IMG/VR virus record: IMGVR_UViG_2734482547_000008
Source of the DNA: a virus
Taxonomy: Duplodnaviria > Heunggongvirae > Uroviricota > Caudoviricetes
Strand: one strand, 5' to 3'
Length of the DNA stretch: 50,331 nucleotides
Positions 1,476 to 2,173 of the stretch are shown here, piece after piece. The first letter of the stretch is position 1. Every line of letters starts with the position of its first letter. The position numbers and the translations under genes were made by a program. Below the pieces are notes generated by a model. It saw nothing but the letters and a program-made list of their open reading frames with translations, ran no database searches and was not told where the DNA came from.

Positions 1476-1775
1476 ATGATTCAGGGAGGTGATTATTTAC
1501 TAAAAGAAAACGAAGACTTAGGGTGTGAAAACGATCATAAAATGATCATTTTATTGACTTTTTATCCAGTGAAGGTAGGATCGCGCGCATATGTAGTATG
1601 TTTCAAATCAACAGGATACTACATAAAAGGGAAACCCAGCATAGCTGGAACTATGCTGGGTCAATCTGTAAAAACTTGCATCAATGCTTTACTTCGAGCT
1701 CGTGGCGTATCCTATGATATTCCCCGGTCTCCTGTAAAGCAGAGATATATCTGTTCAGGCAGGAAAAATGGATAA
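1476..1775 (+). CDS. Hypothetical protein (99 aa), cargo region
   Basis: ORF in AT-rich DNA. Stop overlaps the start of the next ORF (ATGGATAA), suggesting translational coupling. No clear Shine-Dalgarno at the first ATG; an internal start at 1542 is possible. Confidence 0.35.
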   Translation: MIQGGDYLLKENEDLGCENDHKMIILLTFYPVKVGSRAYVVCFKSTGYYIKGKPSIAGTMLGQSVKTCINALLRARGVSYDIPRSPVKQRYICSGRKNG

Positions 1776-1974
1776 ACTAACCACAGACCCAAAGTTACAG
1801 GCTGCGCGAATTGCAGCTGATATTACAATTGCAGCAATGACATCCACCAGGGGTAACTTTACCTCTTTTCATACAGCAGGTGATTCATCCGCTATGCAGT
1901 TATGGAACGCGTGCTTTTCTGATGTAATTCGTGCAATCAGCGAGTCAGTTGACCTTCGCGAACCGCAAAAATAG
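1768..1974 (+). CDS. Hypothetical protein (68 aa), cargo region
   Basis: ORF translationally coupled to 1476-1775. Its 3' end overlaps the convergent ORF 1937-2137 by 38 nt. Confidence 0.35.
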   Translation: MDKLTTDPKLQAARIAADITIAAMTSTRGNFTSFHTAGDSSAMQLWNACFSDVIRAISESVDLREPQK

Positions 1975-2137
1975 CGCATCTTGGGGTACACAGGATCTGC
2001 ATAGCTATCCACATTGCGGTGGCGAAGTTTCGATCCTGTAATGTATCTTCATCAAGTCCTGAACGTAGCGCATTGATAATTTCCGCGCTTAATCTTTCTA
2101 GGCCTTTGGTATCAGGTTGCTTTTTATTCTTGTCCAT
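1937..2137 (-). CDS. Hypothetical protein (66 aa from the internal ATG of ORF 1937-2173)
   Basis: ATG at 2135-2137 preceded by GAGGA with 8-nt spacing. The longer ORF start at 2173 abuts the U-tract of the upstream terminator. Confidence 0.3.
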   Translation of the reverse strand: MDKNKKQPDTKGLERLSAEIINALRSGLDEDTLQDRNFATAMWIAMQILCTPRCAIFAVREGQLTR

Positions 2138-2173
2138 GATTATTGTCCTCTGATTGGTATATAAAGCGCCCAT

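Follow-up and report, generated by a model that had tools for sequence, protein, structure and literature searches.

The interval between the cargo terminator and the control region of the mom operon (positions 1476–2173) in a 50,331-nucleotide stretch of Caudoviricetes DNA (IMG/VR record IMGVR_UViG_2734482547_000008; the whole stretch is hereafter termed the window), within which a Mu-type prophage lies in reverse orientation, is on good comparative support a composite of control DNA (1500–1750) and an exchangeable cassette (1751–2180) carrying two small open reading frames, ORF2 and ORF3. These look like real genes arranged as a compact convergent pair, and together they constitute a rare, uncharacterised two-gene module that is plausibly, by analogy, a new variant of the kind represented by Tab/anti-Tab of the Pseudomonas phage JBD26. 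The reading favoured here, with a probability of roughly 0.4, is that ORF2 would be an effector expressed in the lysogen against competing phages, and ORF3 a corresponding antidote or counter-defence coded on the late-gene strand. The features upon which this argument depends are as follows.

1476–1775, plus strand: ORF1, 99 amino acids
1768–1974, plus strand: ORF2, 68 amino acids, predicted helical hairpin
1937–2137, minus strand: ORF3, 66 amino acids, helical, with the motif F..AMW[IL]AMQ.[IL]C.P
1937–1974: 38-nucleotide overlap of the 3' ends of ORF2 and ORF3, read directly from the sequence
1751–2180: cassette with ORF2 and ORF3, breakpoints from the comparison of variants
2206–2181, minus strand: terminator hairpin from a terminator scan, ending the DUF826–DUF1378–esterase cargo genes and forming the right cassette border

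Coding character of ORF2 and ORF3

An initial annotation of this interval had described the three frames at these coordinates, with a ATGGATAA stop-start overlap between the first two, a GAGGA Shine-Dalgarno sequence before the third and the 38-nucleotide 3' overlap, placed between a cargo terminator and the mom promoter, and all of these elements were found as described, with the terminator at 2206–2181 (minus strand) to the right and com and mom to the left. The minus-strand frame was listed as 1937–2173 (78 amino acids), and an internal ATG at 2137 gives the 66-residue form, with the GAGGA at 2146–2150 lying 8 nucleotides upstream of it. Since a single-nucleotide indel at 2145 in alleles of 92% identity disrupts the 78-residue extension and spares the shorter frame, the 66-residue start is taken to be the real one. 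As many as 54 frames of at least 30 amino acids overlap the first 5 kb of the window, and sizes of this order are frequent by chance; it is because of comparative evidence, and not the mere existence of the frames, that ORF2 and ORF3 are placed beyond chance.

Both frames are intact in every full-length allele despite approximately 8% divergence of the DNA, and ORF3 is intact also in the deletion variants carried by strains AST198 and CI5. When assessed against the 92% alleles, the ratio of nonsynonymous to synonymous polymorphism (pN/pS) was 0.07–0.12 for ORF3 and, outside the overlap, 0.10–0.22 for ORF2, with variable sites gathered at third codon positions in each case (13 of 21 in ORF3, p = 0.007; 13 of 19 in ORF2, p = 0.002). 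Within the 38-nucleotide overlap, three of five substitutions fell at the third position of ORF3 codons, being silent for ORF3 and altering residues of ORF2, and ORF3 evidently takes priority there. The compact convergent pair proposed by the initial annotation is accordingly borne out for ORF2 and ORF3, and the related expectation that the frames would be conserved as coding sequence in related phages holds for these two, with their third-position bias and low pN/pS, and fails for ORF1, the frame of which is unstable. Treatment of the three frames as a single cluster is therefore not sustained, ORF1 being separate from the pair and lying as an unstable frame over regulatory DNA.

Conventional searches were uninformative. 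Scans of ORF1–3 and of the remote ORF2 and ORF3 homologues described below with Pfam, NCBIfam and PADLOC returned nothing useful, PADLOC-DB 2.0 giving no match to ORF1, ORF2, ORF3 or the ORF2 homologues at E values up to 0.1–1. Neither tblastn of ORF2, ORF3, P0045 and P0046 against 50,697 GenBank phages, nor two scans of genome contigs, nor a profile search against PDB sequences produced a match, and a word-indexed protein search with ORF2 and ORF3 retrieved only near-identical E. coli proteins. Inspection by eye, with no dedicated prediction run, revealed no transmembrane stretch in ORF2 or ORF3.

An exchangeable cassette beside mom

Comparison of variants located the left breakpoint at approximately 1750, where the sequence common to all of them stops after AGAGATGCAT, and the right breakpoint at 2181, the start of homology to lambdoid DUF826 modules (query position 820). 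Three alternative cargoes occupy the space so defined: a 56-residue CPAC...CPAC zinc-ribbon frame with its own AAGGAG Shine-Dalgarno sequence, present in most Shiga toxin-producing E. coli (STEC; locus L003, 4390–4580); a 175-residue zinc-ribbon protein in strain M18 (locus L016, 3399–3926); and ORF2 plus convergent ORF3, recorded in 17 of 5426 E. coli genomes. All three cargo types follow the same promoter and leader, each with a plus-strand gene beginning at the same place, and this conserved stretch therefore has the look of a site from which interchangeable cargo is expressed. Separate acquisition, as proposed initially, thus gains support from the bounded nature of the cassette (~1751 and ~2180) and from its occurrence in so few genomes compared with the adjacent leader, present in 217.

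The accompanying claim that the interval is lower in guanine-plus-cytosine (GC) content than the surrounding phage DNA requires some qualification. It is valid with respect to the whole prophage (0.537), but the AT-rich part is mainly the ORF1 region (0.38 for 1362–1750; 0.385 for 1476–1750), whereas the cassette itself (0.437 for 1751–2180) is near the value for com–mom (0.469). By way of confirmation of a further initial statement, phage Mu has no counterpart beside mom: in AF083977, gin ends with its stop codon within the GATC region of the mom promoter (Pmom), and no gene intervenes.

The P2/P4 defence hotspots and the lambdoid moron sites are examples of accessory hotspots in phages. The site beside mom resembles these in combining a constant promoter and leader, adjacent to the conserved gene mom, with interchangeable small cargo genes that are unrelated to one another and with a terminator border, in having a GC content below that of the phage backbone, and in carrying its cargo on the strand opposite to the late genes; it differs from the named moron hotspots in that its three cargo types are of no assigned function. 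We know of no description of a hotspot beside mom in Mu-type prophages of E. coli, the literature not having been searched specifically for one.

Remote homologues and conserved pairing

An exhaustive HMMER search identified three proteins of 64–78 amino acids that were 33–43% identical to ORF3, depending on the alignment, and subsequent metagenome and viral scans added loci L033–L036 and L058 and nothing else. The ORF3 homologues have in common the motif listed above. When compared with phrog_21398, the window ORF3 gave E = 0.095, and three of five family members matched, the best at E = 3.7e-7. In Mu-like phages, these homologues were located directly after a DUF1804 small terminase gene, with the genes for the large terminase and the portal following, this placement between DUF1804 and large terminase being recorded in L022, L023, L024, L033, L034, L036 and L058, with the window copy standing beside mom instead. 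In L024, L033 and L036, the ORF3 homologue starts so close to the end of the small terminase gene as to overlap or abut it.

In three of nine remote loci (L022, L058 and L034), the ORF3 homologue converges on a homologue of ORF2, with 3' overlaps of 26, 26 and 29 nucleotides, respectively. The ORF2 homologues, of 80–88 amino acids, were detected by BLASTP at E = 4e-6 with shuffle z-scores of 8.3 (L022) and 5.2 (L058), and the family is characterised by the motif LT[TI]D..[LI].[AVI]AR[IM] near the N terminus and by a helix with W..F...[VI] near the C terminus. Four lineages, represented by the window type, L022, L058 and L034, therefore retain the convergent pair with overlaps of 26–38 nucleotides. 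The ORF2 family was never met without the ORF3 family. Conversely, the ORF3 family stands alone in L024, L033, L035, L036 and AST198/CI5, and L023 has it with no ORF2 homologue. Two near-identical phages, L034 and L033, are distinguished only by the presence of the ORF2 homologue, with the ORF3 homologue in both.

Locus L023 (GCA_006647045.1), an enterobacterial Mu-like prophage, carries between its ORF3 homologue and the large terminase gene a gene (4259–5116, minus strand) that is convergent on the ORF3 homologue and codes for a 285-residue DUF4145 protein resembling PD-T7-4 (E = 6e-6), as a result of which the site flanking DUF1804 is regarded as one that hosts defence genes.

The small terminase of the window phage itself is a PF11985-type gp27 and not a DUF1804 protein, and the proposal that ORF3 might be a duplicate of a gene in that phage's own terminase region was rejected, there being no paralogue in that region. 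As a separate observation, an 82-residue frame (26209–26457, minus strand, in window coordinates) that separates the gene of the Mu gp27 family (26468–27049, minus strand) from that for the large terminase repeats about 27 C-terminal residues of gp27 (VTDEL.GVD.M.E..EFRI...L.GKA), and may be a partial duplication.

Comparison with Tab/anti-Tab of JBD26

Tab (gp31) and anti-Tab (gp30) were described in the Pseudomonas Mu-like phage JBD26 (Patel et al., Nat Commun 2024; PMC10884400). Tab, a protein of 83 amino acids coded on the minus strand and served by its own promoter, is made in the lysogen and stops the tail assembly of invading phages, while anti-Tab, which binds Tab, is required in the lytic cycle only; phage DMS3, which is without tab, had to receive atab by engineering (PMC10884400). 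According to its discoverers, the system has so far been recorded solely in close relatives of one Pseudomonas phage, and linked pairs of defence and counter-defence genes are predicted to be common (PMC10884400).

Examination of the JBD26 record (locus L068) indicated that gp29 is a DUF1804 protein, with atab at 4378–4629 on the plus strand and tab at 4583–4834 on the minus strand, giving the order DUF1804 small terminase, atab overlapping its stop on the late strand, convergent tab, and large terminase. In the remote pairs, as in JBD26, one gene follows the DUF1804 small terminase gene immediately on the late strand, and its partner lies on the opposite strand. The proteins are of similar size (83 and 83 amino acids in JBD26; 68–88 and 64–78 for the ORF2-type and ORF3-type partners), as are the convergent 3' overlaps (47 nucleotides in JBD26; 26–38 in the window and remote pairs), and in both systems the late-strand partner is able to stand alone. 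Tab-type architecture, with convergent genes, overlapping 3' ends and the putative effector opposite to the late strand, was recorded for the window, L022, L058 and L034.

The window pair keeps the strand arrangement of the JBD26 genes, with ORF3 on the late-gene strand and ORF2 opposite to it, here behind a candidate sigma-70-like promoter; unlike them, it has been relocated to the accessory region that lies between gin and mom, in a phage whose gp27 is of the PF11985 type. A further difference is that the ORF3 family often occurs without the ORF2 family, unlike the situation of DMS3, to which atab was supplied by engineering. Direct homology of ORF2 and ORF3 to Tab and anti-Tab was rejected, with hhalign probabilities below 1% and shuffle z-scores below 2.5, and because sequence homology is absent, the relationship is one of analogy rather than of membership.

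Assessment of function

Under the favoured reading, ORF2 would be transcribed in the lysogen from the sigma-70-like promoter and would act as a small helical binding protein interfering with competing phages. ORF3, which shares its strand with gin, mom and the late genes, would serve as the antidote to ORF2 or as a counter-defence, and would be made when leftward phage transcription crosses the region; convergent transcription over the 38-nucleotide overlap would simultaneously damp ORF2, with the expression of the two genes being reciprocally coupled. It is in this manner that Tab and anti-Tab operate in JBD26.

A number of results weigh against such an assignment. Alignments of the ORF2 family with Tab (AEY99485 / YP_010299225) scored 0.2% in hhalign with Smith-Waterman shuffle z-scores of −1.0 to −0.5, and the corresponding values for the ORF3 family with anti-Tab (AEY99449) were 0.1% and at most 0.7. 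About 20 substitutions, all between sequences that are themselves related, underlie the selection statistics. Single-sequence AlphaFold2 models are helical hairpins of mid confidence (predicted local distance difference test score, pLDDT, of 72.5 for ORF2), and Foldseek searches against PDB and BFVD gave nothing below E = 3. The Shine-Dalgarno sequence of ORF2 is weak (AGGA, 3 nucleotides before the ATG), and neither a scan nor inspection by eye located a sigma-70 promoter for ORF3 between the strong terminator and its Shine-Dalgarno sequence; the window pair moreover lies outside the late operon, with ORF3 directly behind that terminator. Finally, at five of the nine remote loci the ORF3 homologue has no ORF2 homologue beside it, and at one of these five its partner is an unrelated gene of defence-like character; ORF3 may for that reason be a resident late gene rather than a dedicated antidote.

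This last point is the basis of the alternative that survives best. On that view, DUF1804-type Mu-like phages possess ORF3 as a resident late gene, which might for instance code for a packaging accessory factor, and ORF2 is an unrelated gene, belonging to a set of several morons that insert beside ORF3; the 3' overlap would have made the recombination that moved ORF2 to an E. coli phage drag ORF3 along with it. The constancy of the ORF3 homologue, its close attachment to the end of the small terminase gene in the three loci noted above, and the variety of its neighbours (a 67-residue gene, the DUF4145 defence-like gene or an ORF2 homologue) all speak for a resident gene. However, the E. coli cassette contains a complete ORF3 with its own Shine-Dalgarno sequence and is cut exactly at the terminator, ORF3 is under purifying selection far from any terminase gene and is kept after deletion of ORF2, and the window phage, being of the PF11985 type, has no resident ORF3 homologue. 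Taken as a whole, we consider this alternative possible, if on the unlikely side.

Substantially less probable is a toxin-antitoxin or addiction module, as put forward in the initial annotation, in which one product would be toxic and the other, or an antisense transcript over the overlap, would neutralise it and thereby stabilise the prophage. The genes are compact and their 3' ends converge and overlap, an arrangement known from some type I systems, and their co-occurrence is asymmetric, ORF3 being seen alone and ORF2 never. Type I systems nevertheless consist of a small hydrophobic membrane toxin and a non-coding antisense RNA, whereas both partners here have a protein-coding substitution pattern indicative of purifying selection, are modelled as helical hairpins and have no transmembrane segment that could be seen; type II pairs are co-directional operons, whereas ORF2 and ORF3 are convergent and without a Pfam, NCBIfam or PADLOC domain or known toxin fold. 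In addition, addiction is of no obvious use to Mu-type prophages, which enter the chromosome by transposition. Of the functional classes suggested initially, exclusion or anti-defence fits the closest analogue, Tab/anti-Tab, whereas a classical toxin-antitoxin function is not favoured.

Returning to the effector and antidote reading, it can be extended to the doubtful but specific proposal that ORF2 and ORF3 might represent a second, sequence-unrelated family of the Tab/anti-Tab type, in which ORF2, expressed from the prophage, would prevent competitors from assembling virions or from completing some other late step and the antidote would give the carrier phage self-immunity, the pair having spread in DUF1804-type transposable phages and been exported as a cassette beside mom.

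ORF1 as an unstable frame over regulatory DNA

The remainder of the interval, together with the adjoining DNA, contains the following features.

1362–1499, minus strand: mom-operon control region, with the GATC palindrome AATCGATCG-N7-CGATCGATT (1405–1429) and the com Shine-Dalgarno sequence
1487–1494 and 1878–1885: AGGTGATT repeats, end points of a 391-bp deletion in AST198/CI5
1533–1582: three Dam sites (GATC at 1533, 1544 and 1579) surrounding the promoter, one of them overlapping its −10 element
1554–1581, plus strand: sigma-70-like promoter TTGACT-16-TAGGAT from a consensus scan, pointing away from mom
1623–1662, minus strand: 13-bp hairpin (stem-loop 1633–1662) followed by UUCCCUUUUAU, from a terminator scan
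1738–1709, minus strand: weak promoter-like site TTTACA-18-TAGGAT, a consensus match only

Of 5426 complete E. coli genomes, 217 contained DNA corresponding to 1430–1775, the majority of them from STEC, and in these relatives the Prokaryotic Genome Annotation Pipeline (PGAP) labels the ORF1 frame as 'frameshifted', as 'incomplete' or a pseudogene, or as a 154-residue hypothetical protein. Among 11 distinct sequences of the common variant A, the frame from the ORF1 ATG extends for 0, 56, 135, 154 or 195 codons. It is broken in the 92%-identity alleles of ORF2/ORF3 by a 79-bp duplication or small indels, and is stopped at codon 18 in L016 (strain M18, ~75% identical DNA), where no frame remains and blocks of the DNA are still conserved. 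In AST198/CI5, the 391-bp deletion takes out ORF1 and codons 1–37 of ORF2, the remnant of which gains a stop, leaving ORF3 intact. The first 50 codons of ORF1 exhibited variable sites in the proportions 7/7/11 by codon position (p = 0.18), with no third-position bias; the count for codons 69–91 was not used, as the duplication-bearing alleles were misaligned. ORF1 is thus evidently a fortuitous or decaying frame and not a conserved gene. Since the ATGGATAA overlap is abolished by a single-nucleotide insertion in the 92% allele and most relatives have a disrupted ORF1 frame, the stop-start coupling of ORF1 to ORF2 is fortuitous as well, and the operon implied by the initial annotation is not upheld.

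A translationally coupled ORF1–ORF2 operon divergent from the mom promoter region, with ORF1 as a functional protein, must consequently be judged highly improbable. It would be consistent with the intact ORF1 and overlap in the window lineage, with a match of ORF1 to phrog_26524 (E = 1e-43, over profile positions 1–90 of 135), and with the fact that the first 50 codons are open in those E. coli relatives keeping the region and the start motif. Set against this are the frameshifts, duplication, premature stop and deletion among relatives, the missing third-position bias, the PGAP pseudogene calls, and the location of a promoter and a conserved hairpin inside ORF1; no Shine-Dalgarno sequence is visible before its ATG, and the phrog_26524 family frame is itself unstable, its C-terminal part being replaced in the window by the cassette. 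As to whether the plus-strand frames are expressed from 1362–1475, a question raised by the initial annotation, no plus-strand promoter is predicted there or elsewhere upstream of 1476, and the only plus-strand sigma-70-like site (1554–1581) is inside ORF1, past its start. The most extreme view, that the whole interval is a functionless degraded remnant, might draw upon the decay of ORF1 and the rarity of the cassette and is scarcely credible in the light of two frames intact in all full-length alleles at 8% DNA divergence with low pN/pS, and of 33–43%-identical ORF3 homologues in the same arrangement.

The hexamers of the 1554–1581 promoter are retained in the 75%-identical L016 (TTGACT-16-TACGAT) though the spacer has diverged, and in every variant the next intact plus-strand gene is the cassette gene. 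We infer that this is the candidate promoter of the cassette gene, here ORF2, with a leader of approximately 180 nucleotides. The hairpin at 1633–1662 has a folding z-score of −3.5, and a stem of 12–13 bp (−19 to −22 kcal/mol) is formed in each of three alleles that differ in stem sequence, loop and frame-shifting indels, including one compensatory pair (C-G to U-A), in what is the most variable patch of the region. Individual folds were relied upon in this comparison because the indels shift the register, so that RNAalifold under-reports the stem. We read this hairpin as a probable intrinsic terminator of leftward transcription that would shield Pmom from read-through. The minus-strand site at 1738–1709, of which L016 retains the −35 with a weaker −10, could, speculatively, combine with the hairpin to yield an antisense RNA of about 80 nucleotides.

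As a side observation, the 79-bp duplication (L004 ~4300–4380, and also L008–L010 and L013) resembles a recombinant of two hairpin alleles and results in two tandem terminator-like hairpins in the leader.

The mom control region and neighbouring genes

The mom promoter of phage Mu is regulated by Dam, OxyR and C. The control region in the window is near-invariant in all relatives, even the 75%-identical prophage of M18 showing 4 differences over 114 nucleotides, and is intact in the AST198/CI5 deletion variants; divergence beyond it begins at about 1487–1500. GATC occurs five times within 1409–1582 (174 bp) as against once per 335 bp window-wide, with two of the five in a 9-bp inverted repeat adjoining com (1405–1429) and three around the plus-strand promoter, a clustering that could reflect Dam-dependent control of both divergent promoters. 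The arrangement shares with phage Mu the clustered GATC sites upstream of com–mom and the conserved Com and Mom proteins. It differs in that gin of Mu ends inside the control region with nothing between, whereas in the window 3.6 kb of cargo plus the cassette have been inserted, with a terminator hairpin between these and Pmom. In E. coli AST198 (L014, 1794–3000) and CI5 (L015), com and the control region are followed by a DNA cytosine methyltransferase gene instead of mom, the modification enzyme downstream of Com having been swapped.

The genes flanking the interval are as follows.

470–1207, minus strand: mom (Pfam Mom)
1161–1361, minus strand: com (Pfam Zn_ribbon_Com)
2213–2467, minus strand: DUF826 gene, cargo
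2503–2697, minus strand: DUF1378 gene, cargo
2830–4884, minus strand: SASA/DUF6645 esterase gene (684 amino acids), cargo
4970–5542, minus strand: gin, on the strand shared with com, mom and the structural genes

The DUF826/DUF1378/SASA-DUF6645 module (2213–4884) is of lambdoid type, lying between gin and mom and on their strand in a phage of Mu type, and its DUF826/DUF1378 DNA matches hundreds of E. coli genomes. The hairpin at 2181–2206 that ends it is able to form on the plus strand also, the homologous L016 hairpin being called on that strand. An Rfam scan of 1200–2900 yielded no family, apart from a sub-threshold match at 2742–2824 (plus strand), between the DUF1378 and esterase genes and outside the interval considered here, to Esr41, a small RNA of enterohaemorrhagic E. 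coli (22 bits compared with a gathering threshold of 102; E = 0.22). At the right end of the prophage, the window (83–390) contains a truncated host gene, the product of which resembles the N-terminal portion of a glycoside hydrolase of family 1 (phospho-beta-glucosidase type), and a near-identical prophage occupies other chromosomal sites in FORC_069 and related strains, as for a transposing phage.

Implications

In some 200 genomes, PGAP enters ORF1 (phrog_26524) either as a pseudogene or as a hypothetical protein; a region comprising promoter, leader and terminator is the better reading of it. With respect to the pair itself, if the effector and antidote reading is true, orphan ORF3 genes would be counter-defences against lysogens bearing ORF2. 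Tab-like architecture is represented by an unrelated pair at the terminase-flanking site of other Mu-like phages and, in addition, the pair occurs as a mobile cassette in prophages of E. coli, including human isolates, and this provides an E. coli candidate with which to ask whether such an architecture marks a general class of small-protein defences.

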